From Bacteriovoracaceae bacterium (GTDB taxonomy: Bacteria > Bdellovibrionota > Bacteriovoracia > Bacteriovoracales > Bacteriovoracaceae): a stretch of DNA of 14,900 nucleotides. Each line of letters starts with the position of its first letter. The first letter of the stretch is position 1. A model generated the notes under the pieces. That model was not told the DNA's origin, ran no database searches, and saw only the letters and a list, made by a program, of their open reading frames with translations. Made by a program: the position numbers and the translations under genes. The stretch spans positions 1 through 14,900 of the forward strand of contig JBMYPC010000076.1 of assembly GCA_049599895.1 (NCBI GenBank). The letters run 5' to 3'. This document shows, in pieces, positions 12-14,745 of this stretch.

Positions 12-1265
12 ATGAAAAGATTCAGACCAAAATACTATGAAGAAATAAAAATACCTCATGTAAGGGACCTAGACCCCTCGCTAAAGCCATTTTTTGAGAA
101 AAAGCTATCAGAGGACAGGAATATTGTTTGTCTCTTTATGCTACTTTCTAGTGCCTTATATTTGACTTTTAAACTAAGTCCTTACGCTAAAGAGTTATCA
201 AAATTTATTGAGGCTATCCCATTTCTTGGTTCTCCTTTTGTAACTTCATTTTTAGTAACTTTGATTTTTTCTTTTTTAATTGTCGTTATCAAGAAGTCGG
301 CAAAATATAAGTTGTATCAAATCCCAGAGCTTGAGGGTGAAAAACCTTTTTGGGTTCAACGAATTTCAAAAAGCTGTGCCAAGGTCTTTTCTATTCTGAT
401 TGCTGCTTTTTTTGAGATTTCCAGAGTATTGCTTTTAGACATTAAGAATAAAAATAACCCGCGCCCACAGGCAATAATAATTCCTCTTCTGGTGGCAATT
501 ACCCCTTATGTATATAAAACAGATTATCTTACTATAAATACAATGTTTCTAACTTATTCAATATTATTTCCTTTGTTTTTGGTTTTTGTTTACCTGTTGA
601 AAAGAGTGATCTTTAGTGCTGTTTTTAGTTCACTTTCTGTTAGATCAGACTCAATCAAAAGTATGGAGGAGCTAAAGGAGTCGTTTTCAAGAGTATTTCA
701 ATTCTACAAAGAAAATTCTAAAAATTTAAGCAGAGGCGATATTTCACTGACTCCCAAGGGATTATCAACAGCTGGTTTTTGCTACCTTGCAAGTTCATTT
801 CTTAAAATTTCTCTATATTGTAGAGATAGAAATCAAAAGTTAGATAAAATCTTTGTTCTAGGAGGACAATTCTTGCTTTACGCCAGAAATGCAAGCTTTT
901 GGCTTTTGGTAAATTGGAATTTGCTCGCAATCTTGGTGATTGAGTTGGTCATTGGCTTGGTCGGGTTGTGGTTGATTCGAGAAGCCCTCGTGCAGGGGGT
1001 AGTAATTTATAAGAATTTTCAACTAAAAAATATTTTTAACTTTGAACAATACAAGCTATTCTTTGAGCACATGATTTTCCTCTCTGCAAGTACTGTTACA
1101 TCACATTCATGGATCAAAAGCAGCCTCTTTTCAAAGAGACTCCAAGAGTGCCTAGTCATTATTAATAAAATCGAATTTCAGAACCAAGTTAAAATTGCAA
1201 AAAAGCATTTTAATTCCAACCCAAAGAATCCCAGCAGAAGAAAAATTGGCTTAATTAGAAGTTAA
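12..1265 (+). CDS. Hypothetical polytopic membrane protein (417 aa)
   Basis: Long ORF with AAGGA RBS at 1-5. Several hydrophobic segments (IVCLFMLLSSALYLTF, FVTSFLVTLIFSFLIVVI, FLTYSILFPLFLVFVYLL, LLAILVIELVIGLVGLWLI). No family motif recognised. The 3' end overlaps the convergent kinase gene by 15 nt. Confidence 0.75.
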   Translation: MKRFRPKYYEEIKIPHVRDLDPSLKPFFEKKLSEDRNIVCLFMLLSSALYLTFKLSPYAKELSKFIEAIPFLGSPFVTSFLVTLIFSFLIVVIKKSAKYKLYQIPELEGEKPFWVQRISKSCAKVFSILIAAFFEISRVLLLDIKNKNNPRPQAIIIPLLVAITPYVYKTDYLTINTMFLTYSILFPLFLVFVYLLKRVIFSAVFSSLSVRSDSIKSMEELKESFSRVFQFYKENSKNLSRGDISLTPKGLSTAGFCYLASSFLKISLYCRDRNQKLDKIFVLGGQFLLYARNASFWLLVNWNLLAILVIELVIGLVGLWLIREALVQGVVIYKNFQLKNIFNFEQYKLFFEHMIFLSASTVTSHSWIKSSLFSKRLQECLVIINKIEFQNQVKIAKKHFNSNPKNPSRRKIGLIRS

Positions 1266-2492
1266 GCAGGCTTTAGTCACGTCTCCATCTTGTTTAATTT
1301 CAAACGAAAAGCCATTTAATTTTGAAAACTCTTGAACAATTTTCAGCCCTTGCCCCGCTCCCTTCTCTCCAAGAGTTCCCTCTTTTATGGAGTCATCTGT
1401 GTAGCCAATGCCAGCATTTTCGATAGAGATAAGGATTTTTCCTTCACACTTTTGAGCCCTGAGAGTTATCTCTGAGTTGGGACTTGAGAACTTTATTGCG
1501 TTCGATATCAGGTTGCCAAGTATTTGATTGTTAAACTGTGATCTATTTACATTAAGAGAAAGATCACTTGATGAATCCATAACAAAAGATAAATTTTTCT
1601 CAACTAGTTTTGATTCATACTTGTCTCTCAGAAGCTTAAATGAATCACTCATTAGCACTGACTCTTTCTTGGCTTCGACCTTTTGCGTATCAAGATCCAT
1701 TGCATTTTGAAGAATAGATTTAATTTCTTCAGATAACTGGTAAACCTTTTCTTTAGATTTTTGATCTAGAGCTTTCTGCCCACTAAGTTCTAAATATCCT
1801 GACAAAAGAGATGTGTTTCTTCCTAGGTCATGAAAAAGAACTGTTAAAAGCTTTTCTTTTTCAGATTTTTCTAGTTCAAGCTCTTTAGCTTGGATAGTAA
1901 TTTTAGATTGAAGTTTCTTTCTGTTGTAAGAATAAAAGCCGAACATCATAAAAAATAATAATGGACCAGTAAAAAGGTTGGATTGACCAACATTATAAAT
2001 ATGCCAATCGGACCAATCGTTTAGCTGAATACCTTGCCTTTTTACAAGTTCCATAACAACAATAGAGAACAATGCTGAAGCAAGTGACCAAAGTCCACCA
2101 TACCTTATCCCAAGTAAGGTTACAGAAATAATAGGAATGGCTGTAAGCCAAATAATAGTGGGGTTTATATTTGCCCCAGCATTTATATAGCTTGACTGCA
2201 GTCCCATTACTGTAAGGAGAATAATAACATTGTACGATGTGTTCTTGCTTAAGTATTTTCTCTTGTTGAGAAATAAGATTATTGATTGTAGTGCAAATGA
2301 GGTAAAGCAAAAGAATGAAATTGCATAAAGTCCAATTAATCCACAATAAATGGTTTGAACAATCCACATATAAAGACATGTGACCACAAAGCCTGTTTTT
2401 ATATAGTCTTCTTCCTGTTGGTCACCTCTTGAGCAGATTTCAATTAAATATAAATGTGTTTCAAGCAGTCTATTGGCTAGCCTTGATAACAT
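1251..2492 (-). CDS. Membrane-bound sensor histidine kinase (about 5 TM N-terminus, HisKA-like and HATPase_c domains)
   Basis: H-box LFHDLG, N-box QILGNLISNAIKFS, G1-like ENAGIG, G2 GTLGEKGAGQGL. Multiple N-terminal TM helices. Overlaps the upstream response regulator by 16 nt. Confidence 0.92.
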   Translation of the reverse strand: MLSRLANRLLETHLYLIEICSRGDQQEEDYIKTGFVVTCLYMWIVQTIYCGLIGLYAISFFCFTSFALQSIILFLNKRKYLSKNTSYNVIILLTVMGLQSSYINAGANINPTIIWLTAIPIISVTLLGIRYGGLWSLASALFSIVVMELVKRQGIQLNDWSDWHIYNVGQSNLFTGPLLFFMMFGFYSYNRKKLQSKITIQAKELELEKSEKEKLLTVLFHDLGRNTSLLSGYLELSGQKALDQKSKEKVYQLSEEIKSILQNAMDLDTQKVEAKKESVLMSDSFKLLRDKYESKLVEKNLSFVMDSSSDLSLNVNRSQFNNQILGNLISNAIKFSSPNSEITLRAQKCEGKILISIENAGIGYTDDSIKEGTLGEKGAGQGLKIVQEFSKLNGFSFEIKQDGDVTKACLTSN

Positions 2493-3163
2493 AGAGAAAG
2501 ACCAGAATTTCTTTTAGCTGAAATACTAACTCCTGCTGGACCTAGCTTTTTTCTAAGATTTGTTAATGTTGTATTAAAATTATTGTCTGTAACAATCTTG
2601 TCCTTACTAAAAGCGGACTTTATTAGTTCTTTTTTTGATATTAACTTCTTTGATAGTGACAAGGTTTCAATAATTTTCACCTCGGTATCAGTAAACTCAA
2701 ATGGAATGCTCAGTTTTGGATATATGGACTTATTACTCTCTTTGTTTATTACAAGCAATAGACTCCCTGAATCTACAAGTTTTATTACCTTTGATTGTGA
2801 AATAGATTTTTTCACTCTTGCCATTATTTCATCATTGGACATATAGGTGCTTATAAGTTCAACACCTTTATTGATTATAGATTCATCAATAACGCTCTTG
2901 TTTAATGATGAGGTCTTAAAAATAATGCTTAGATGCTTATATCTATCTTGTGACATAAAGAAGTCGTAAACTTCAAAACCATTAATCTCTGGCATGAATA
3001 TATCGCATAAAATAAGGTCGTATTTGAATTTATCACTTTCTAGAATCGATAATGCTTCATTTAACGTGTTTACTGCGTCAATATTAAACTCAACTTCAAA
3101 AACTTGGCTGTATAGATCAATAAAATTCTGATTATCATCAATTATTAAGATATTCTTTTTCAT
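2477..3163 (-). CDS. Response regulator, OmpR-like (receiver plus winged-helix DNA-binding domain)
   Basis: ILIIDD acidic pocket and phospho-acceptor LILCDIFMPEING. C-terminal FTDTEVKII...TDNNFNTTLTNLRKKL...ISAKRNSG follows the Trans_reg_C pattern. Confidence 0.92.
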   Translation of the reverse strand: MKKNILIIDDNQNFIDLYSQVFEVEFNIDAVNTLNEALSILESDKFKYDLILCDIFMPEINGFEVYDFFMSQDRYKHLSIIFKTSSLNKSVIDESIINKGVELISTYMSNDEIMARVKKSISQSKVIKLVDSGSLLLVINKESNKSIYPKLSIPFEFTDTEVKIIETLSLSKKLISKKELIKSAFSKDKIVTDNNFNTTLTNLRKKLGPAGVSISAKRNSGLSLCYQG

Positions 3164-3437
3164 GAGTAAATTTAAGCATTTCTATAAAGTAAAATCAATT
3201 ACCACATAGAGCTAACTTCTTAAAAACAGGTCAAAAGTAAAGCGTTTTACCTTATGATAATTCGTTTTTGAGCGATCATATACCTAGACAGAAAATATTC
3301 AAGAATAGAAAGCTTAGCTTAAAAAAGTCAAAGTAAACATCAAGCCTTCGGTTTTTGCAAAATGTTGACTTAGGCTTTTTATTCGCTGCCTTCTTGTTGC
3401 TTGAATTATTCAGGCAAGTTTTAAAGGAGACATGTTT

Positions 3438-4400
3438 ATGAAAAAAATGGTTATTTTATTAAGTATTGCAACCTTAATCACCTCATGTGGAAGCGATTCA
3501 TCACCTAGTGCTGGAGGCTCTTCTTCGAGTGCGGTAAGTATGAAGTTTTTTGACAGCTTGGTTTCTGGGCTAAAGTACAAAACTCAAGCTGGTGATGAGG
3601 GATTAACTTCTTCAGGGACTCTCAGTTGCATTCCAAACGAGTTAGTTGAGTTTTATATAGGGGATTTCAGGCTTGGCTCAGGAGTGAGTTGCGGAGAGAA
3701 AACAGTACTACCGACAGATCTCTTTGCCTCAAGCACAATCACAAGCACAGAAGTAATTAATGTTGGAGTCCTCCTTCAAAGCTTGGATGATGACGGAAAT
3801 CCCAACAACGGAATAAATATTCCTTCAGCTGTATCAAATTTCGAGTACGCAAGTATTGACTTGAGTGATGCGACAGACGGAAACGCTGATTCAATACCTG
3901 ATGTAGCTGCATCCTTTTTGAGTGAAGTTAATTCTGACTCAGGAGCTACCATTACAAGCAAAACGACAACTCAAGTCTCTGCTCATTTTCAAATAAGCTT
4001 CGGCACAAATGGAACAATAAATAAAAGTTTTACTAATACAACCGAGCTAGGAGGAGCAGGGACATGCCCTACAGCATTCTCAGTAGAGATAAGCAATGAT
4101 ACTCTAGGCTTTTCAATCACTTCAGGCACTTTTAGCGTAGACTTAACCAAATTTACACAGTTAAGTGCGTCCAGAAACCTATCAAATAACAATTTTGACA
4201 TAGTTTATGAAAGTAGTGACCCCACTTTGGATAGTGGAGCATGTGCTGGAAATGGTGGCTTTGCAAAGTCTACATTAACAATAGATGGGGTTGCCTATTA
4301 TAACGCAGGAACACCGAACACGGATGGTAATTATACATATGTAGATACATGTGTTGACTCATCTACGGTGAATGTATGCGTTGGGTCTTGGGCACAGTAA
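3438..4400 (+). CDS. Surface lipoprotein, Ser/Thr/Gly-rich, adhesin-like
   Basis: AAGGAG at 3424-3429 is spaced 8 nt from ATG 3438, whereas ATG 3432 is only 2 nt away. MKK plus hydrophobic core plus lipobox LITSC, then a Ser/Gly linker. Motifs DSLVSGLKY and LLQSLDDDGNPNNGI resemble the N-terminal domain of proteobacterial surface lipoproteins. Several Cys residues that could pair. Confidence 0.85.
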   Translation: MKKMVILLSIATLITSCGSDSSPSAGGSSSSAVSMKFFDSLVSGLKYKTQAGDEGLTSSGTLSCIPNELVEFYIGDFRLGSGVSCGEKTVLPTDLFASSTITSTEVINVGVLLQSLDDDGNPNNGINIPSAVSNFEYASIDLSDATDGNADSIPDVAASFLSEVNSDSGATITSKTTTQVSAHFQISFGTNGTINKSFTNTTELGGAGTCPTAFSVEISNDTLGFSITSGTFSVDLTKFTQLSASRNLSNNNFDIVYESSDPTLDSGACAGNGGFAKSTLTIDGVAYYNAGTPNTDGNYTYVDTCVDSSTVNVCVGSWAQ

Positions 4401-4890: not shown

Positions 4891-5217
4891 TTACTTAGTT
4901 GTGATTTCAAGTCCACACTTAGGAAACCAACCTGGTTTTGTAACAACACGCTTTACAGAGATTTCATTGTAGTTGAATTTTCCATTGATGATGTAGTCTT
5001 CTTCTCTGAAAGAAACCATACCTTCATCAGCATCATCTTCAATTAGGTCAACAATCAGTTTTGTTCTTCCGTCTTTCATTGCTACTGTATCAGCAAGCTC
5101 AACTTCTTCTACAAAACATGGAAGTGAAACAGTTGTTGTATTTCTTTCTACACCGTAAGCACTAGCATTTGAGATTAATAAAACATAAGATAATAAACCA
5201 ATTAATTTCGTTTTCAT
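4891..5217 (-). CDS. Small secreted hypothetical protein (108 aa)
   Basis: AAGGGG RBS at 5224-5229. Sec signal peptide MKTKLIGLLSYVLLISNASA. Two Cys that could form a disulfide. Confidence 0.85.
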   Translation of the reverse strand: MKTKLIGLLSYVLLISNASAYGVERNTTTVSLPCFVEEVELADTVAMKDGRTKLIVDLIEDDADEGMVSFREEDYIINGKFNYNEISVKRVVTKPGWFPKCGLEITTK

Positions 5218-5326: not shown

Positions 5327-6133
5327 ATGAACATTGGTGAAACACTCACAGATATTAGGCAAAAGCTGGGATACCCCAGTGCCAGGCAGTTTTATATATA
5401 TTTGGAGTCAACGGGATTGATTGATTTCAACTATTCATACTATGTAAGGCTCGAAAAAAAGAAGGCCATTCCTTCGGCGAATATTATTAATAATATTGGA
5501 AAAATTATAGGGGGGAGACAAGAAGATAAATTACTTATTGCTTATTGCCAAAGCCTTTTTCCCCACAAAAAAACGCTTTTTACTGAGGGGATGAAAAAAG
5601 AAAAACAGCAAGCAATTCAAGAGAGCTTTAGTACAACCGTGATCAAGCAAAAAGAACTTACTGTTAAGCAAGTTCATCAGATAGGGAAGTCAAAAGAGTA
5701 TTATTATCTTTTCTTGATTTTAACTTTGGCGAGAAACCCATTACCAAAAACAGACCTACAAGAACTTTATGGAAAAGAGACGACAGAGAGAATTTTAAAG
5801 GAAATGCAATCATCAAAGCTATTACAAATAATAGACGATCATGTTGTTTCCCTGGCGTCTGAAATGAAGTTTCCATCCAGAGATAAATCTCTTGATAAAC
5901 TATATAATAAACTAGATGAGTGGGATGGTGAGTTTTATAAGTTTTTTAATTTTAAGAATTCGAATCGAAAGTTTATGATAAAGAGGGTGACCCCTCAAAC
6001 GTTAAAGTTAATTGAAGCCCATTGTAATTTAGTCATTGATCTTATTCGTTCTGGAGATGAAAACCGTCCAGACCTTCTCGAAGATGTTATTATCTTTAAT
6101 TTAAATTTAGAGAAAGGTATTTTACCAGGGTAA
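5327..6133 (+). CDS. XRE-type HTH transcriptional regulator, possibly TIGR02147/DUF4423-like
   Basis: N-terminal IGETLTDIRQKLGYPSARQFY...YSYYVRLEKKKAIPS is a Cro/CI HTH pattern. Length of about 270 aa, a central YYYLFLILTL helix followed by a winged-helix-like segment, and divergent position relative to a secreted-protein gene fit that family. The family assignment is by recall only. Confidence 0.75.
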   Translation: MNIGETLTDIRQKLGYPSARQFYIYLESTGLIDFNYSYYVRLEKKKAIPSANIINNIGKIIGGRQEDKLLIAYCQSLFPHKKTLFTEGMKKEKQQAIQESFSTTVIKQKELTVKQVHQIGKSKEYYYLFLILTLARNPLPKTDLQELYGKETTERILKEMQSSKLLQIIDDHVVSLASEMKFPSRDKSLDKLYNKLDEWDGEFYKFFNFKNSNRKFMIKRVTPQTLKLIEAHCNLVIDLIRSGDENRPDLLEDVIIFNLNLEKGILPG

Positions 6134-6397: not shown

Positions 6398-6688
6398 TTA
6401 GCCAACCTTTTTCTTCTTTTTAATGACTTCCTTGTACTCAGGAAGACTTTGGTAGCCGTTAGGATATAAGAGTATTGTGGGGCTAATCTCAAGAAATGCT
6501 GAGAGTTTTATGGCCAGTTTTGGACCAACTTCCCTGCGGTTATTTTCAATCGCAGAAAGATTCGCTTGAGAAATTCCACAGGCCCAAGCAAGATCATCTT
6601 GAAGAATGTCAAAGTTCTTTCTAAAGGCCTTAATAATATCACCCGATTTAACATTTTTTGGTGAAATCAGCTTTAATGGATCTTTCAT
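6398..6688 (-). CDS. higA: HigA-like antitoxin, XRE/Cro-CI HTH
   Basis: SGDIIKAFRKNFDILQDDLAWACGISQANLSAIENNRREVGPKLAIKLSAFL is a classic HTH_3. Starts 2 nt after the toxin stop. Confidence 0.85.
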   Translation of the reverse strand: MKDPLKLISPKNVKSGDIIKAFRKNFDILQDDLAWACGISQANLSAIENNRREVGPKLAIKLSAFLEISPTILLYPNGYQSLPEYKEVIKKKKKVG

Positions 6689-6690
6689 AC

Positions 6691-6993
6691 TTACCTTTTA
6701 TAATCATGCTCGGGAGTTATCCGAGCAATTAAAATTTTTATAACCTGATCTTCTATTTTATAAATAATTCGTCCACTGTTGGAAAAGCAAGAAGATCTAT
6801 AGCCTTTCCAATTGTCGTAAAGTTCGTGATCATCCCATCGTCTTTCACCCTGAATTGACTCAGGTCCTTCCTCAGAAATTTGCCTAATCCAAGCGGCAAT
6901 AACGATACGGTCTTCAGAGGAAAGCTTCTTCTTTTTAACTAACTCTTCAACTTCTTTTTCTACCTTAGGAGACTCAAACTCTACTTTCCACAT
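6691..6993 (-). CDS. higB: RelE/HigB-superfamily mRNA interferase toxin
   Basis: N-terminal beta strand WKVEF, then DHELYDNWKGYRSS...GRIIYKI and C-terminal HDY, as in RelE/YafQ/YoeB/HigB folds. 100 aa, located upstream of an HTH antitoxin. Confidence 0.85.
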   Translation of the reverse strand: MWKVEFESPKVEKEVEELVKKKKLSSEDRIVIAAWIRQISEEGPESIQGERRWDDHELYDNWKGYRSSCFSNSGRIIYKIEDQVIKILIARITPEHDYKR

Positions 6994-7042: not shown

Positions 7043-7248
7043 CAAGAAACGTGGAAAAACATCTAGAAATATCAAATGGCTAAGTTTGGCTAACTTTAAA
7101 CTGTAGCTTACTGATATCACTCACAAATGGTTTCTGGCCCCGCAGGGGACTAGGAAGCGTCAGCGCCCGATGTTTAGAAGTTCCCTTACTTGAAATTAAA
7201 ATCAGTGCGAGACTATATAACCAATAACTATCCTTCTAAGGCACTGTA

Positions 7249-7422
7249 TTGAAGACTTTTTTTCTGGTGTTAAACATCCTCGTTTTCTCTTCTCATTCCT
7301 ACGCCAATCTCACTGGTGTTTGGGTCGGAAAAGGTAAATATACTCTCAAAGGAAAAGAAAATTCCTGTCAATGGATAGAATTAAGGTTTCACCGTGAACA
7401 AGACCAGTTTATCTTTCTCTAA
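7249..7422 (+). pseudogene. 57-aa signal-peptide ORF, probably a truncated secreted-protein gene
   Basis: Translated by hand, as it is not in the ORF track: TTG start with AAGG at 7238-7241, MKTFFLVLNILVFSSHSYA-NLTGVWVGKGKYTLKGKENSCQWIELRFHREQDQFIFL*. It stops 14 nt inside the 3' end of the convergent hlyD-like gene. Confidence 0.55.
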
Positions 7423-8395
7423 ATGCACTTGAAGTCGAATGAATAAAAGGCTTCACCAGATATTGAAATAAGCTTTTTTGCCCTGTCTTCACTTCTCCAA
7501 TTAGAGTCATTCCAGGAATAATCGGAAGCTTCTTTTTTTCATCGAGATAGTTTCCAATAAACTGAACTGTTCCCTTGTAATAAGGACGACTTTGAATATC
7601 GAGCAAGGTTGTAGGGGATATCTCTTTAAGAGTCGCTCGTTTCCCGCCATATTGAGCAAAATCGTAGGTGTTGAATTTAAGTGTGACTTCTTGATCAACA
7701 TAGACATGGCCAATATCGTCAGGTGAGATTCTAATTTCTGCTACAAGCTCTCGTTTTTTAGGTACGATCTCCATTATGGTGTCACCTGCAGCGACGACCT
7801 CTCCTGAGTTTGAAATACTGAGGTTATGGACATGACCATCAATCTTTGAAAAAAGAGTGAGACGTCCTAATTGAGATTCATATCGCTTAATGACTTCATC
7901 ATTTTCAAGGACCTGTCCTTTGAGATCAGTGACTCTAATTTTAAGATCAAGATAGGACATTCTGGAATGAAGACCACTTTTAAAAAGCTTTTCTTTTACA
8001 TTGATTTGCTCTACAAGAGTCGAAAGTTTAAGTTTTAAGTTGTTGTTCTGAAGCTTTGTTTGTTCCAATAACGAAAGAATCTTTTGATCATCAAAGGTAA
8101 TCAAGGGGGAGCCGATTTTGACTTTGTCACCTTCTTTAACATGAATCTTTTTGATTTCTCCACCATCGATATGTTGAATTTTTGAAATTTGGTCAATGGG
8201 AATAATTGAACCTGTTGTAATAGCGACTTCTTCTATCTTTGTGATGATTGACCAGACAATAAAACCTAGGAGTATGCAGGAGCTTCCTATTATGATGGCC
8301 CTTGGAATAAGAGGACTGACTCCCTCTTTAAGAAGACTTGAGCGAGAGAGATAACGACTCTCTTTATTGAGAACAGATTTAAGGAACTTTTCCAT
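7409..8395 (-). CDS. HlyD-family type I secretion periplasmic adaptor
   Basis: Single TM, IQHIDGGEIKKIHVKEGDKVKIG lipoyl half, DDIGHV, YDFAQYG, IIPGM...EVKTGQKSLFQYLVKP. The start is placed at ATG 8395 (GGAG at 8408-8405) rather than 8443. Confidence 0.95.
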   Translation of the reverse strand: MEKFLKSVLNKESRYLSRSSLLKEGVSPLIPRAIIIGSSCILLGFIVWSIITKIEEVAITTGSIIPIDQISKIQHIDGGEIKKIHVKEGDKVKIGSPLITFDDQKILSLLEQTKLQNNNLKLKLSTLVEQINVKEKLFKSGLHSRMSYLDLKIRVTDLKGQVLENDEVIKRYESQLGRLTLFSKIDGHVHNLSISNSGEVVAAGDTIMEIVPKKRELVAEIRISPDDIGHVYVDQEVTLKFNTYDFAQYGGKRATLKEISPTTLLDIQSRPYYKGTVQFIGNYLDEKKKLPIIPGMTLIGEVKTGQKSLFQYLVKPFIHSTSSAFRER

Positions 8396-10508
8396 GAGAG
8401 ACTTCTCCAACCTTTGTTTGCATTTGTTTTGAGATATAGTCATTGGTTATTTGACGTGGCCCAAAAATCTTTGTTTTCCCTCTGTCTAGCCAAAGAATTT
8501 TGTCGGCAATCTCAAAAAAGTATTGTTCTTCTGTTGTGATAATAATGGTTTTCTTGTTTTTTTGTGTTGAAATAAGGTTCGAAACCTTTGTTCGATCCTG
8601 AATTGAAAGATCTGTTTCAAGATTATCAAAGATAAGAATTTTTGCATCTGAAATTAGAGTTTTGATAACATTAATTTTTCGTAAAAAGGAATAAGAAAAC
8701 TTTCTTTGGTCGGTTTCATCCACAACTGTGTCGAGACCATCTTCTAAATCGAGAATCTCTTGTTTAATTCCTAAAATTTCAAGGTATTTAAAAATTTCAT
8801 CTTCTGAGGCGTCAGGGCTTTCTAATTGAAAGAAGGTTCTTAAGCTTTCATTGAAGAAACTTGCGTACTGGGCACAATAAGCAATTTGATCTCTTAATTT
8901 TATAGGATTGATTTGTTTAAGATTAAGATCATCAATCATCACTCGGCCCGCTTGAGGTTGCACAAGACCCATAAGAAGTTTAAGAATTGATGTCTTCCCT
9001 GATCCTTCATGTCCATAGATTACGAGAAGGTCATTTCGCTCAATTTCAAAGTTTACACCAAGAACAGAAGGAAAAGAGCTTTGGACATAGCGAACAGAGA
9101 CTTGTTGAAATGAGATCTTTCCTTTGAGAGTGTTGTAATAAACAAAAGAGTCTTTATGTCTCTCTTCCTGAGTAAGGTTCATGAAGTTATTGATTTGCAT
9201 GATATTTGTTTTCAACTTATGAAGCTGGACACTCAGACTAAAAAGAGTTCTTAGTGGATTTAATATTTTCCATAAAATAAGAATTGAAGCAAGAAGTGCT
9301 CCTGAGCCCATTTCTCCATCAAGAACTTTTGTGACGCCAAAACCAATTGTGGAGAGGGCTGCGATAGAAATAACTGAATTTGATAATGTATTGATGTTAG
9401 AGTTGATGATGTTTGACTTTGAACTTGAACTAATATGGGCTTTTTGAAGCTCCGAGAACTTTCTTAGCCACATCTCTTGAAGTGAATAACTTTTTATTGA
9501 GTTGACCTTGGTAAAGGTTTCAAGAAGAAACTCACTTTTTTTCGTTGAGAGCTCTTGGTGAGAGTTTGAAAACTTTTTAACCACTGGTAAGTAATAGAGA
9601 CCAAGGATAATAAAGAAGATGATTGCCATGAGAGGGATGACGGCAATGCTGCCACCTATAAGATACATGACACCAAGAAAAATTAAAATAAATGGAATTT
9701 CAAATAAGGCAACAAAACCAGGTCCAGAGAAAAAATCAACGACATTATAAAAGTCTCTAAATTTTGAAAGTTGTTTTCCTACTGTTCCAGTCTCTGAGAT
9801 CTTTAGTGGCAGGTAGAGCAATCTCTTAAATATCTCCTGATTTAAAATGAAACTCAGTCGAGATGTAATGCTACTCAGAGTGTATGAGCGAATCATTCTA
9901 AAGAAGACCAATGCAAGAGTATAGATGAGAATCCCTACAGAAAGGAGCGCAAAGTTTGTCTGAACATTGGCTATGGCGATCTGTTTATAAACGAGCATTA
10001 CAAAGAGAGGGGAGATAAGATAAAGAATTGAAAGAGCAAATGATGTGAGAAAAACCACAAGGAAGGGTTTCTTAAATCTTTTTAAAAGGATTTGAAACCA
10101 ATTTCGAGATTTATCTTTAACGGTCACTTCATAATGACTTTTTTTAGAGAAGGTAATAAAGCTACCCTCAGATTCATCAAGTTTTCTTTCAAGATAAACA
10201 CCAGCTCTTGGGTCAAAATAAAGAAAGTTCTTTCCAACTTTTCTTATAATAAGAAAACATCTGTTTTCATTAAAAAAGATACATGGCAACGTTCCTACTG
10301 TTTCGTTAGTCAGATGAACATTTTGAAATTTGAGAATAAATCCTAAAGAAGAGATCGTGGAAATCAGTTCATCAATTCCAAAATCTTTGAAACTATAGGG
10401 GAGAGCACGATAGATATCTTGCTCTCGTCCTTTCCAGCCTAAGGAGTCTAGTAAAGGCCCGATGAGTTGGTAGTATTCATGTTTGTTAAGTTCTTCTCTA
10501 GAGTGCAT
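8379..10508 (-). CDS. Type I secretion ABC transporter 2 (C39-like N-domain, TMD and NBD)
   Basis: N-terminal LPC..F / FLYFDP C39-like domain, PLFVMLVYKQ TMD start, Walker A GHEGSGKT, Q-loop YCAQ, GLDTVV. Degenerate signature FSYSF and Walker B ILIFDN. Confidence 0.92.
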   Translation of the reverse strand: MHSREELNKHEYYQLIGPLLDSLGWKGREQDIYRALPYSFKDFGIDELISTISSLGFILKFQNVHLTNETVGTLPCIFFNENRCFLIIRKVGKNFLYFDPRAGVYLERKLDESEGSFITFSKKSHYEVTVKDKSRNWFQILLKRFKKPFLVVFLTSFALSILYLISPLFVMLVYKQIAIANVQTNFALLSVGILIYTLALVFFRMIRSYTLSSITSRLSFILNQEIFKRLLYLPLKISETGTVGKQLSKFRDFYNVVDFFSGPGFVALFEIPFILIFLGVMYLIGGSIAVIPLMAIIFFIILGLYYLPVVKKFSNSHQELSTKKSEFLLETFTKVNSIKSYSLQEMWLRKFSELQKAHISSSSKSNIINSNINTLSNSVISIAALSTIGFGVTKVLDGEMGSGALLASILILWKILNPLRTLFSLSVQLHKLKTNIMQINNFMNLTQEERHKDSFVYYNTLKGKISFQQVSVRYVQSSFPSVLGVNFEIERNDLLVIYGHEGSGKTSILKLLMGLVQPQAGRVMIDDLNLKQINPIKLRDQIAYCAQYASFFNESLRTFFQLESPDASEDEIFKYLEILGIKQEILDLEDGLDTVVDETDQRKFSYSFLRKINVIKTLISDAKILIFDNLETDLSIQDRTKVSNLISTQKNKKTIIITTEEQYFFEIADKILWLDRGKTKIFGPRQITNDYISKQMQTKVGEVSHGKVP

Positions 10509-11793
10509 CTGGCTTTCCTGTGCTTTGTTCTAGGATTTCTAGAGGTCGTTCCACAAGGGTCGAATAGTCATGAAAATTATTTTGTGAAATACAATGAAAA
10601 AGAATTTTATTTCTTAAGCTGATTGTGAACTCAAGACGACTCTCAAGAACATGGAGGAATACTTTGTCGAGATATTTTCGAAGTCGTTTTAGGTTTTCAG
10701 TATGATATTTTTTGATAACGATACCATTTTTTTTGGCATATTTATCTGTCGTAATGAGATGTTTATTAATAAGCATCATGACCTGACTCACGCTGTTCAT
10801 TGCCCGAGACTTATTCTTATTTTGATAAAGTTGATAAGATTCGAAACACTTTATAAGGATGTCTTCTAAAGATTGGTCTATTTCACTTATTCCAGTGTGT
10901 TTAATCAGAGGAGTCATATTTTCAAAGTCATTAACTCCTTCGAGATATTTGGGGGCCCAGCTCACAAGATCAAAGTCAGATTGAATCTCACGAGCAATAA
11001 AGACTAAAGAGCGATAAATAATCTCTCCTCGTCTTTTTGACGGGTCTTCATTTAGACTCTTTAGAAAGTATTGATCAAATAGCTTGTCTTGATACTTGTC
11101 TTCTCTTATGTCGTGAATAGAGTATTGAGTCTTTGTTTTAAGAGTGAGAGAATTAAAGTGCCTCAGTGAGTCAGAGAGCTTTTTCTTAAGTCCGTCTGTG
11201 TTTAAATTTTCATCAACGATAGAAAGGACATTGGTTAAGAAAAAAACGATTTCTTTATCAAGAGTTGGAACACCTGTGTAATTAATAAAGAGTTTTAAAT
11301 CTTCAAGCGTTTTAGCTGTTTGAAAGTGGTGTTTGAAGTTTCTTAGATGAAGGGCCTCATAATCTTGATGATTTGTATGATGAATGATCCAATCGAGAAG
11401 TTCATTCTTAAGGTCTTGAGTGAAAATGATTTTCCCTCGTTGCAGGTTGTGAACGACTCCTTTGATGTAATCAAGGGCCTGTTCATGATCAATCTCCTGA
11501 CTTTTGAGTTGTGGGAGATTATAGAGGTTCATGATTGATTCCTCTCTTTGGAAATGTTCTTCAGTATATTGAAGAAAGTGGGTTAACGTGACCCTTTCTT
11601 CTTCAAGGACTTGAACCGTGATTTCCTTCTTTTGAATCTTTTCGAGTATGAGATTTAAATCAAGAGTGTATCTCGCAAGTTGTTTATGGTCTTGGTCAAG
11701 GCTTGGTATATGAGTTCGTCTGAGAATATCCCGAATCGCATCCCATTCTCTTGAAGTGTGAAGCAACCAGCGATTGAAGGCGAGGTCATTCAT
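10498..11793 (-). CDS. Hemerythrin-domain protein with three tandem hemerythrin-like repeats (431 aa)
   Basis: GGAGG at 11803-11799 precedes ATG 11793. Repeat 1 has THIPSLDQDHKQL, HFQREESIM, QEIDH and WIIHHTNHQD. Degenerate repeats begin TGVPTLDKE and TGISEIDQS. No signal peptide or TM. Confidence 0.88.
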   Translation of the reverse strand: MNDLAFNRWLLHTSREWDAIRDILRRTHIPSLDQDHKQLARYTLDLNLILEKIQKKEITVQVLEEERVTLTHFLQYTEEHFQREESIMNLYNLPQLKSQEIDHEQALDYIKGVVHNLQRGKIIFTQDLKNELLDWIIHHTNHQDYEALHLRNFKHHFQTAKTLEDLKLFINYTGVPTLDKEIVFFLTNVLSIVDENLNTDGLKKKLSDSLRHFNSLTLKTKTQYSIHDIREDKYQDKLFDQYFLKSLNEDPSKRRGEIIYRSLVFIAREIQSDFDLVSWAPKYLEGVNDFENMTPLIKHTGISEIDQSLEDILIKCFESYQLYQNKNKSRAMNSVSQVMMLINKHLITTDKYAKKNGIVIKKYHTENLKRLRKYLDKVFLHVLESRLEFTISLRNKILFHCISQNNFHDYSTLVERPLEILEQSTGKPDAL

Positions 11794-13462
11794 TTTTACC
11801 TCCTTCAACCTCTAGTTTTTGAATAGATTTGTTTTGAATTTTGTATTTTAAATCTGCTTGAATATCTTTTGGGAGATTCTTTCCAATAAAGATGATTGTC
11901 ATCTTGCCATAGAGCTTTTGTAGTAGCCAACAAGTCATCTTTTGCGCGTCATGGTCCATGGAATGATAGCTTCTATCGAGAATCAGAATCTTTGGATGTC
12001 TGAGAAGAACTCTTGCCATAATGATTCGAAGGACAATCCCATTTGGCATAAACTGACTAGATCTAGAGTCTAAGACGGTATCATATCCTTGGGGGAGTTT
12101 TGAAATCAATTCATCAAGGCCCAACATTGAGGCGCAATCAAGAGCAATTTGGCTTCTACTGGGTTCAAACATGGTAATGTTCTCAAGAACAGTTCCATTG
12201 AAAAGCTCTGACTTTTGGGGAACATAGCCAATGAGGTTTTGAATTGAGGATTGATTAAATCCAACAGAATCATAATGATCAATAGAGATTTTTCCTGAGT
12301 GGAGTCTTCTTTGACCAAGGATCGTCCACATAAGCCGACTAATCCCAGATTTATCTTCAGATTTAATAAAGATTGTTTTTTTTGCTGGGACTTCGAAATT
12401 AAGATCTTTAAAAAGAGTTTGCTCTTCATCCATTATCGTTAACTCTTTAAGTTGAAGAGAGCCGTCAATATCTTGTGGGATGTCAGGAAGATCATTATCA
12501 CTTTGTCCTTCGATCTTTAAAACTTTTTCTAAGCACTCAAGTGCAAGTTGATAATTGGAAAGTTGGAACATAAAACCTACAAAGCTTTGAACAGGCTGAA
12601 AGAATCGGTTACCGAGAAGAACACATGCCGTAAGAACTCCAATTGTCATATCTCCGCGAACAACAAAATAAGAACCGATTCCTAAAATACCAAATAAGAC
12701 AAGTTGAGAGAAGAAGACTCCGAGTGAGTCAGGGACAATATCATAAGCCTTGAGTAATAAACTTCGATGAGTTCTTTTCTTTTCGAGAAATTCATACTTT
12801 CTGACAAGTCTTTCTTCAAAACTTGTCGATTTAACGATTGAAATTTTAGAGAGAATATCAATGAAAAAACTAGTTTTTTCTTCTTCAGTTTCTTGCTGGC
12901 CGATATTGATATGCTTAAAGCGTCTTTTGTGAAGGACGGCAATAGTAAAGTAAAGAGTAAAAATGAGAACTAAAAAGATGGCAATGGCAAGATTGAGATA
13001 GGCAATAAAGCAGAGAAAGAGAAAAACAAAGGGCAGGTCAAGTAGGCTTGAGATAATCCTGCCTGAAGTGAGATTTTTGACCGTTGAAATACTATTGAAA
13101 CTATCAATCAATGACCCTACAGAGAGTTCATTTATTGATTTGGTTTCTCCGTAAAGGATTTTATTGATAATTTGGTTTCCTTGAAAAATTTCATATTCTG
13201 TAGAGTAGTGGTTGATGAGATTTTCTTTAGCAAGTTTGATCGCTGTTTCAAGTAAGACTGCGACAAGCCCTCCAAAGATTAAAAACACATGAGATTCATA
13301 GGATGAGTTTCTGAGTGTACGATCATAGGTCTGCATGAGAACGATAGGAATCGTAAGAGAAAGGATATTGGTTACCGTTGAAGCGGTTAAAAAGAGAAAA
13401 AGCCGACTTTTACTTTCGGTCATCGAGTCCTTAATGAAAAACCAGATTGAGGTTGCTTTCAA
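11786..13462 (-). CDS. Type I secretion ABC transporter 1 (TMD and degenerate NBD)
   Basis: NILSLTIPIVLMQTYDR, LLDLPF, MTIGVLTACVLL, GYVPQKSELFNGTVLENI, LPQGYDT. The Walker A position reads SEDKSGIS. The start is uncertain: TTG 13462 overlapping the TolC TGA, or ATG 13423. Confidence 0.92.
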   Translation of the reverse strand: MKATSIWFFIKDSMTESKSRLFLFLTASTVTNILSLTIPIVLMQTYDRTLRNSSYESHVFLIFGGLVAVLLETAIKLAKENLINHYSTEYEIFQGNQIINKILYGETKSINELSVGSLIDSFNSISTVKNLTSGRIISSLLDLPFVFLFLCFIAYLNLAIAIFLVLIFTLYFTIAVLHKRRFKHINIGQQETEEEKTSFFIDILSKISIVKSTSFEERLVRKYEFLEKKRTHRSLLLKAYDIVPDSLGVFFSQLVLFGILGIGSYFVVRGDMTIGVLTACVLLGNRFFQPVQSFVGFMFQLSNYQLALECLEKVLKIEGQSDNDLPDIPQDIDGSLQLKELTIMDEEQTLFKDLNFEVPAKKTIFIKSEDKSGISRLMWTILGQRRLHSGKISIDHYDSVGFNQSSIQNLIGYVPQKSELFNGTVLENITMFEPSRSQIALDCASMLGLDELISKLPQGYDTVLDSRSSQFMPNGIVLRIIMARVLLRHPKILILDRSYHSMDHDAQKMTCWLLQKLYGKMTIIFIGKNLPKDIQADLKYKIQNKSIQKLEVEGGKNE

Positions 13463-14745
13463 ATTGAGCTCTTTTTCTTGAAATCTTCGAGTTGAAGTCT
13501 TCCTGTTCTCCAAAGCAATCTAAGCTCAAGTTTTATTTTTCGATAAAAACTCGAAAGCTTTGCTTTTTCCATATCTAAATATTCTCTTTGAGCGTCAAGA
13601 ACAATGTCCTGGTGTCCGGCTCCTTGTTGGAATTCAAAGGTGCGATCTTTAAAAACTGATTGGGCTGTATTAGAAGCTTCCTTGTATTTCCCATAGGCGT
13701 CTCTTTCGATTTGAATTTGTTCGATGAGATTAATGATTTCATTCTCAATCTGTATTTTTGCTCTTTGGTGCTCTGCTTTTGCAAGAAGAGATCTCGCTTT
13801 AGAGGCTTGAACATCATGATATTCTTTTCGACCTGTCCAAAGAGGGAAGTTAAAAGAAAGTCCAATAAGGGTGTCATAAGAGTCATCAAACTTATCTTCA
13901 ATGGCCCATTCCTGCTTGTGTTGAAAGTTAAAGCTTAAAGTGGGAAGACGAGTGGACTTAAATTGTTTTACTTCAAGTTCTGAAAGTTTTATTTGAAACT
14001 CAGATCTCTTAAGTTGATTTGAGCTAATAGAGAAGCTCTTTGCCTTATCTTTCTCTGCAATTATTGTTGAGACCTTATTTTCGAAACTTGGAAAATGAAA
14101 TTTTGTAGGAGGAGTTGTTGAAGAGATATCTTTGATTCTTGATTTGAGACTCAAAAGAGTTTGCTTAGTCGTTTCGAATTGGGCTTGGCTTAACAAGAGC
14201 CTAGAAGTGGCTCTTTTAAGTTCAACTTTTGAGAGATCGCCTGCCTGAAGTTTTTTTTCAACCATTTTTTTATTTTGAACAAGTGAGTTGGTACTCTTTC
14301 TATCAATTTGATTAAGAGAGAGGGCCAGCTTATAATCGGCTATGATACTTGTAAGCTGATACAAGAGATCATTTTTTGTAAGCTTAATTTCTTTTTCTGA
14401 GAAGCGAGCACTCAGTTCAGAGAACTCAGATCTGTATCTTCTTTCAAAGTCTAAGAGGTTGTAGTTGATATCAACTTCTGGGCCATAATAGCTGCGAAGA
14501 TCGACGCGAGGTTCTTTTTCACCTTCAAGACTAAAAGCCAAGTTGACCTGAGGGTGATACGCTGAGTTTTGGGACTTTGATACATGATAAGAACTCTTTG
14601 CTTGATGCTTTCTTATTTTAACAAGATAGGCATTCTCACTGGTCTCATTGAGGAAGCTATAGAGATCAAGATTACTTACACTTGCGTGCCCCGAATTGAT
14701 GGCGATTTTGGAAACGAGAATCAAAAAGCACAGTTTTTTCACCAC
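13459..14745 (-). CDS. TolC-family outer membrane efflux protein
   Basis: GTG start and signal peptide ending GHA-S. Two OEP repeats (AYHPQVNL...KLQAGDLSKVEL; RLPTLSF...FNFPLWTG...FQQGAGHQDIVLDAQ). First gene of the T1SS operon. Confidence 0.93.
   Translation of the reverse strand: MVKKLCFLILVSKIAINSGHASVSNLDLYSFLNETSENAYLVKIRKHQAKSSYHVSKSQNSAYHPQVNLAFSLEGEKEPRVDLRSYYGPEVDINYNLLDFERRYRSEFSELSARFSEKEIKLTKNDLLYQLTSIIADYKLALSLNQIDRKSTNSLVQNKKMVEKKLQAGDLSKVELKRATSRLLLSQAQFETTKQTLLSLKSRIKDISSTTPPTKFHFPSFENKVSTIIAEKDKAKSFSISSNQLKRSEFQIKLSELEVKQFKSTRLPTLSFNFQHKQEWAIEDKFDDSYDTLIGLSFNFPLWTGRKEYHDVQASKARSLLAKAEHQRAKIQIENEIINLIEQIQIERDAYGKYKEASNTAQSVFKDRTFEFQQGAGHQDIVLDAQREYLDMEKAKLSSFYRKIKLELRLLWRTGRLQLEDFKKKSSI

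Follow-up and report, generated by a model that had tools for sequence, protein, structure and literature searches.

As four-component type I secretion systems (T1SSs), the RtxB/RtxD/RtxE–TolC exporters of Vibrio use two ATP-binding cassette (ABC) proteins for the export of MARTX toxins, as described in excerpts of PMC4316617. Each ATP site of such a pair is built from the Walker motifs of one nucleotide-binding domain (NBD) and the signature motif of the other (excerpts of PMC7756269). Hemerythrin sensors fused to output domains, a transport ATPase among them, also have precedent: P1B-5-ATPases are transporters with a C-terminal hemerythrin, which may have a role in sensing O2 or iron (excerpts of PMC9388753). 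In this study we analysed a stretch of 14,900 nucleotides from a Bacteriovoracaceae bacterium (contig JBMYPC010000076.1 of assembly GCA_049599895.1; hereafter the window), in which a gene of the hemerythrin family lies between the two ABC genes of a predicted T1SS operon. Our proposal, which is tentative and which we hold at somewhat short of an even chance, is that the hemerythrin is a built-in oxygen/iron sensor: it would have taken over the dead-site side of a heterodimeric T1SS pump and would turn on or off, at the transporter itself, the export of acidic, disordered surface proteins of a new class in oxygen-gradient bacteria of seven phyla, which would make this the first secretion machine with such a sensor.

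The window is an entire contig of a 97%-complete genome, and the contig stops at the window's end, past tolC. The operon consists of five open reading frames (ORFs), all on the minus strand and all matched to families: tolC (13459..14745), for a TolC-family outer-membrane channel (Pfam OEP, E 7.4e-32; TIGR01844 below its cut-off); ABC-1 (11786..13513), for a T1SS-type ABC half-transporter without an N-terminal C39-like domain; the gene for a 431-aa three-repeat hemerythrin-family protein (P0001; 10498..11793); ABC-2 (8379..10508), for a T1SS-type half-transporter with an N-terminal C39-like domain; and hlyD (7409..8443), for a short-form periplasmic adaptor of the HlyD family. The adaptor scores 231 bits against TIGR01843, above the cut-off of 208.65, and the best NCBIfam matches of both ABC proteins are T1SS permease/ATPase models, with scores below the cut-offs. 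This order, TolC, ABC-1, hemerythrin, ABC-2, HlyD, is that given by the original prediction (an earlier note on this DNA), and the overlaps that it claimed were recovered when re-read from the sequence: 8 nt between ABC-1 and the hemerythrin gene (11786-11793), 11 nt between the hemerythrin gene and ABC-2 (10498-10508), 65 nt between ABC-2 and hlyD (17 nt if HlyD starts at ATG 8395, its likely start, which has GGAG upstream and gives 328 aa), and 55 nt between tolC and ABC-1 (4 nt if ABC-1 starts at the alternative TTG 13462). Promoter and terminator scans gave results at or below chance. An active C39 peptidase in ABC-2 was considered and rejected, as the Peptidase_C39 match is weak (E 0.0042, below cut-off) and no Cys occurs before about residue 75. 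Short adaptors (258-328 aa, most relatives having about 440) were seen in L013, L018, L020, L021, L031 and L039 as well as in the window, mostly paired with an ABC-2 that lacks the catalytic Glu.

The 431-aa protein had been predicted as a hemerythrin; the fold stands, but a single hemerythrin does not, because the AlphaFold model (predicted local distance difference test score, pLDDT, 92.9; predicted template modelling score, pTM, 0.91) has three helical-bundle repeats and the relatives match hemerythrin in 3-4 stretches, most strong matches being 420-620 aa long. In the window protein itself the Pfam hemerythrin match is confined to residues 34-148 and scores 23.6 against a cut-off of 25.3, and the TIGR02481 match reaches 51.3 against 51.75; across the family scans the hemerythrin match is placed at residues 32-152. 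A Foldseek search with the model returned no row at E<=0.001; the highest-ranking are DcrH-Hr and bacteriohemerythrin, with a TM to target of 0.70-0.77 and an E of about 0.2-0.4, and the family profile matches DcrH at E 1e-15. An exhaustive search with the 431-aa protein gave 345 clusters at E<=0.001 and 59 at 1e-30. On sequence and model together, we regard the protein as having three tandem hemerythrin repeats and as belonging to a distinct family. The best-kept part of the protein is an N-terminal segment seen in alignments (residues 5-30; 11704..11781, minus strand), 69-73% identical among the three closest relatives, with the family pattern W-x-R-W-x-M-Q-T-A-R-x-W-x-D, the core of which is found in 65 of 82 aligned members (full-length three-repeat proteins, about 30% identical); it is a candidate docking helix. 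Repeat 1 (11344..11706, minus strand) carries H36, H80, E84, Q99 (His replaced), H103, H139 and D144; repeat 2 (10969..11280, minus strand) has none of the seven iron ligands, and repeat 3 (10549..10896, minus strand) keeps three of the seven positions, such that in the window copy only repeat 1 could hold metal.

The family at large is richer in ligands. At least one complete H-HxxxE-HxxxH-HxxxxD site is present in 65 of the 82 aligned proteins, and a change of His to Gln at the third His ligand is frequent: complete and His-to-Gln sites number 25 and 43 in repeat 1, 18 and 34 in repeat 2, and 53 and 8 in repeat 3. Among single-domain forms, 19 of 21 have a complete seven-ligand site when judged by eye. 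From these motifs we infer that members of the family would be loaded with iron.

Related loci were collected by pattern scans, 22 from genomes and 24 from metagenomes (46 in all, some of them near-duplicates). ABC-1 is directly upstream of the hemerythrin gene or fused to it, and ABC-2 directly downstream, in 37 loci; a further seven fit the same order as far as the contig edge, L054 is broken, and L011, in a genome that carries a second, complete system, is unlinked. Since the order recurs in 37 of the 46 loci, it is not a product of chance. TolC was found in six of the 46, by similarity to the window's TolC. Whole-genome profile searches of the Magnetococcales placed 12 of 13 such genes between two ABC genes (11 of 56 genomes have the gene, and the exception is again L011), and those of SAR324 placed four of four (88 genomes). 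By record names the hosts belong to seven phyla (Pseudomonadota, Desulfobacterota, SAR324, Spirochaetota, Gemmatimonadota, Bdellovibrionota and Fibrobacterota), and many are Magnetococcales, Magnetospirillum, Desulfovibrionaceae or SAR324, groups with a low-oxygen lifestyle. The distribution is patchy, which suggests horizontal spread: in the host's own family three of 237 genomes have the system, among them G663, which carries L020. A match in G607 was dropped, as it consisted of two ordinary hemerythrins.

Natural fusions tie the hemerythrin to one of the two ABC proteins in particular. Four clusters are single ABC-1–hemerythrin polypeptides, joined at the C-terminus of ABC-1, with three repeats in P0024 and P0051 and one in P0093 and P0094, and they fall in two separate parts of the tree. 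P0093 was modelled with AlphaFold (pLDDT 88.9, pTM 0.73; linker 53-63), and the top Foldseek match of a fusion model is HlyB (7SGR, E 1e-28). A search for longer fused forms, which also missed two known fusions in its length range, found no hemerythrin–ABC-2 fusions. Complete Desulfovibrionaceae chromosomes and a Magnetospirillum genome hold single-domain and fused versions. A lack of linkage between most homologues and T1SS loci had been set as the result that would count against the original prediction; instead, they lie between ABC genes in 37 of 46 loci, with natural fusions and one unlinked copy.

The two ABC proteins have lost different ATPase motifs. In hemerythrin-linked ABC-1s the Walker A Lys is kept in one of 34 and the Walker B Glu in none of 34, as against 34 of 34 for both residues in the first hemerythrin-less set, while the L-P-S-G signature is retained; the window's ABC-1 lacks both residues. 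The ABC-2s retain Walker A (G-H-D-G-x-G-K) and, in most cases, the Walker B Glu, but their signature is degenerate. This complementary loss, taken with the shared architecture of the sites, points to a heterodimer in which one site is live and the other dead, and so supports the heterodimeric ABC exporter of the original prediction. In the window, ABC-2 has an intact Walker A (Lys kept), Asn in place of the Walker B Glu, no H-loop His and a degenerate signature. The Glu is likewise absent from ABC-2 in L013, L020, L021, L031 and L039, all with short HlyDs; judging from these motifs, the motor of the short-HlyD subgroup may be slow or unusual. We considered whether a dead ABC-1 site occurs in hemerythrin systems only and rejected the idea, because all seven further hemerythrin-less ABC-1s lack the Glu.

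Pumps with two ABC proteins and no hemerythrin are widespread. In the order around Magnetospirillum (a Rhodospirillales order) the ABC-1 profile matched 110 of 251 genomes, and 29 of the best 30 loci, which were the ones checked, have no hemerythrin; in the order around Desulfovibrio it matched 15 of 251 genomes, of which nine have the hemerythrin, one has it deleted and five are without it. Four of these five are ABC-1–ABC-2 fusions, and such single polypeptides support a heterodimer for the whole two-ABC group. Hemerythrin-less fusions of this kind were noted at L109-L111 and as open frames of 1294-1441 aa among the matches in the order around Magnetospirillum. On a quick ABC-1 tree (72 rows), the hemerythrin-linked proteins, the window's included, lie on one side of a branch with a Shimodaira–Hasegawa-like approximate likelihood ratio (SH-aLRT) support of 100; 34 of the 35 rows on that side have a hemerythrin (L089 included), and in the exception, L092, the hemerythrin has been lost along with the end of ABC-1 and the beginning of ABC-2. 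The window's own branch is long and its exact placement unsure. The two-ABC chassis is thus common, with the hemerythrin marking one sub-lineage that retains it. The background of the original prediction, in which canonical T1SSs have three components, accordingly needs correction, both from these relatives and from Vibrio RtxB/RtxE (excerpts of PMC4316617). A second hemerythrin-less two-ABC T1SS group was also seen (L155, L159-L164), in four host-family genomes and one other; its ABC-1 carries Asn at the position of the Walker B Glu.

Many of the hemerythrin loci adjoin a gene for an acidic low-complexity protein without a Pfam domain, complete examples of which have 396-1291 aa and 13-34% Asp+Glu. 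The family has an N-terminal E-(L/F)-D-E-L-T-V-L-Q motif and an acidic C-terminal tail with two spaced Trp. The stretch after the N-terminal motif (D-L-S-A-x-E-H-G-G) we take to be loosely like a double-glycine leader. One or the other end of the protein is present in 27 of the 46 loci, by profiles built from the same 46 loci, many of which stop at contig ends; neither end occurs in 16 hemerythrin-less regions of 12-18 kb. The neighbouring genes (for example at L025, L029, L030, L036, L042 and L048) form a previously unannotated family, in which no RTX repeats, Pfam toxin domains or recognised metal-binding domain were found. Sequence and position make this acidic repetitive protein the likely cargo of the hemerythrin-linked systems.

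The window has no such gene, and the N-terminal and C-terminal profiles have no match in its own genome, where the HlyD of this operon is the only T1SS-type one above the cut-off. RTX nonapeptide repeats were found there in two contig-edge fragments, L124 (G000:C266) and L125 (G000:C89:11917-12885), which share internal repeats and are probably the two ends of one gene; no other clear RTX repeats were seen in this genome. By elimination only, this RTX-repeat protein is probably the cargo of the window's system. No end overlap was found between the window's contig and those of the fragments. The fragment tail fits a two-Trp acidic pattern that 2 of 2663 tails match, the pattern having been defined after the tail was viewed; the N-terminal fragment has no significant match to the neighbour of L020 (pairwise E 0.019, outside the top genome matches).

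The fusion to ABC-1, the fixed gene position, the co-clustering with one ABC-1 lineage and the retained ligands together argue for a bound cytoplasmic subunit, and we give an even chance to the hemerythrin being a di-iron sensor on ABC-1 that gates export. ABC-1 and ABC-2 would form a heterodimer with one working ATP site, made of the Walker A and B motifs of ABC-2 and the signature of ABC-1, and one dead site. The hemerythrin would dock through its conserved N-terminal helix on the catalytically dead NBD of ABC-1; a change at the iron site might then shift the NBD dimer and alter the rate of export, such that the state of the di-iron centre (O2/redox or iron occupancy) could gate the export of a large acidic surface protein.

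Several observations weigh against this sensor model. No repeat of the window protein has a full canonical site (six of seven ligands in repeat 1, with Gln99), and as a candidate sensor the protein is therefore weaker than most family members; seven of the 82 have Gln-type sites only and ten have no intact site. The window's ABC-2 lacks the catalytic Glu and His, so its ATPase may be weak. In each of the seven further ABC-1s from systems without hemerythrin, Asn replaces the Walker B Glu, and one of the seven also lacks the Walker A Lys; moreover, the hemerythrin group is one evolutionary event, which makes the motif contrast a comparison of n=1. The host, a seawater relative of the Bacteriovoracaceae, is no obvious dweller at oxic–anoxic interfaces, and the unlinked copy at L011 departs from the rule of linkage.

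The eroded site of the window copy also bears on an alternative that we think unlikely but serious, namely that the pump depends on the hemerythrin as a structural part or as a chaperone of its cargo: the protein would clamp the half-dead pair of NBDs, make that pair more stable or keep hold of the acidic cargo, and any metal would be structural and not sensory. For the window's own copy such a role is more likely. Ligand-poor repeat 3 is conserved at 46-53% identity to the three closest relatives while repeat 2 drifts to 16-18%, and conservation without intact ligands fits a structural role, as do the ten members without an intact site and the N-terminal segment being the best conserved. There is also no clean loss of hemerythrin in the clade, the sole loss having come with damage to both ABC genes. 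A scaffold, however, would not need the seven-ligand sites found in 65 of 82 members and in nearly all single-domain forms, and some systems combine a damaged ABC-1 site with the absence of a hemerythrin, so that a clamp is no general requirement.

Three further alternatives are less likely. Stand-alone bacteriohemerythrins serve as O2 scavengers, carriers or iron stores, and a merely co-expressed protein of that kind, free of contact with the pump, would account for the unlinked L011; we find this improbable given a fixed position between ABC genes in seven phyla, overlapping frames, four fusion clusters, the family-specific N-terminal segment and the co-clustering with one ABC-1 lineage. A hand-over of metal, whether iron or some other, to the pump or the acidic cargo during export, with no oxygen gating, would suit the Asp+Glu content of the cargo family, the several hosts in magnetotactic lineages, an iron-rich trait, and the Gln-type sites, which might release metal more easily; but hemerythrin sites are buried and the cargo has no recognised metal-binding domain, and we rate it lower still. 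Cargo genes often adjoin T1SS genes, and the title of an entry in a reference list names a hemerythrin secreted by a type VI secretion system; even so, that the hemerythrin is itself the cargo is very improbable, as four clusters have it joined to the cytoplasmic C-terminus of ABC-1, it has no RTX repeats, and at 27 of 46 loci it is accompanied by a separate cargo-like gene.

Elsewhere in the window, a dispersed intergenic repeat of about 90 bp lies downstream of hlyD (7123-7230) and is matched 37 more times in the genome, on 31 contigs; by appearance only it resembles a repetitive extragenic palindromic (REP) element or a miniature inverted-repeat transposable element (MITE), and an Rfam search gave no matches, for this repeat or otherwise. 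Beside it, a RelE/YafQ-like toxin gene followed by an HTH_3 gene (6398-6993, minus strand) is likely a toxin–antitoxin pair of the HigBA type. A two-component pair, a MASE11-like membrane histidine kinase and an OmpR-type response regulator, occupies 1251-3163 (minus strand). Four ORFs have no Pfam match: a membrane ORF (12-1265, plus strand), a lipoprotein-like ORF (3432-4400, plus strand), a small secreted-looking ORF (4891-5217, minus strand) and a helix-turn-helix-like ORF (5327-6133, plus strand).

Accounts of type I secretion usually place its control in gene expression, in the recognition of cargo or in periplasmic release. If the sensor model is true, a metalloprotein subunit would act on the pump directly, which would add a new point of control, and a hemerythrin sensor would for the first time have secretion as its output; gating, if shown, would be a new mode of secretion control. 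The loci have also yielded a new tandem-hemerythrin family in which the His-to-Gln site is common, and a cargo family that lacks annotation and has conserved motifs at its ends. The system is directly testable, since versions of it exist in Desulfovibrionaceae chromosomes and a Magnetospirillum genome, groups for which genetic tools are available.

Among the closest known systems is Vibrio RtxB/RtxE, which also has two different ABC genes with an adaptor and TolC, and for which a heterodimer has been proposed (excerpts of PMC4316617); the Vibrio genes, however, have no hemerythrin and are ordered ABC-adaptor-ABC, whereas here the order is ABC-1, hemerythrin, ABC-2, HlyD, with one predicted dead ATP site and a linked acidic low-complexity protein instead of a MARTX toxin. 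With HlyB/HlyD/TolC and LapBCE the window shares T1SS-type ABC proteins, an HlyD above the cut-off and a C39-like domain in ABC-2, but in those systems there is a single ABC gene, its motifs are intact, and a cytoplasmic metalloprotein is absent. The fold and ligand motif are those of DcrH, Bhr-DGC, Bhr-HD-GYP and the P1B-5-ATPase; unlike these known hemerythrin sensors, the present family has one to four tandem repeats, frequent His-to-Gln changes and its own N-terminal segment. In excerpts of the review of hemerythrin sensors (PMC9388753) the words 'ABC' and 'secretion' have no occurrences and no such partner is listed, and a search of open-access text found no report of a hemerythrin in a T1SS. 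HetC, a peptidase-containing ABC transporter (PCAT) of Nostoc, is similar in being a peptide- or protein-exporting ABC protein with an attached ligand-binding domain required for function (excerpts of PMC10986499), and differs in that its cNMP domain is N-terminal, binds ppGpp in vitro and has no metal site, and that its C39 peptidase is active. TM287/288, TmrAB and CFTR likewise pair one canonical with one degenerate ATP site, and the regulatory domain of CFTR, between NBD1 and the second transmembrane domain, holds the hemerythrin's place in chain order (excerpts of PMC7756269); these proteins are not T1SSs, the CFTR domain is regulated by phosphorylation, and here the Walker A Lys is lost too. 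Two-ABC T1SSs, a ligand-binding domain on an exporter and a hemerythrin on a transport ATPase are thus each known separately.

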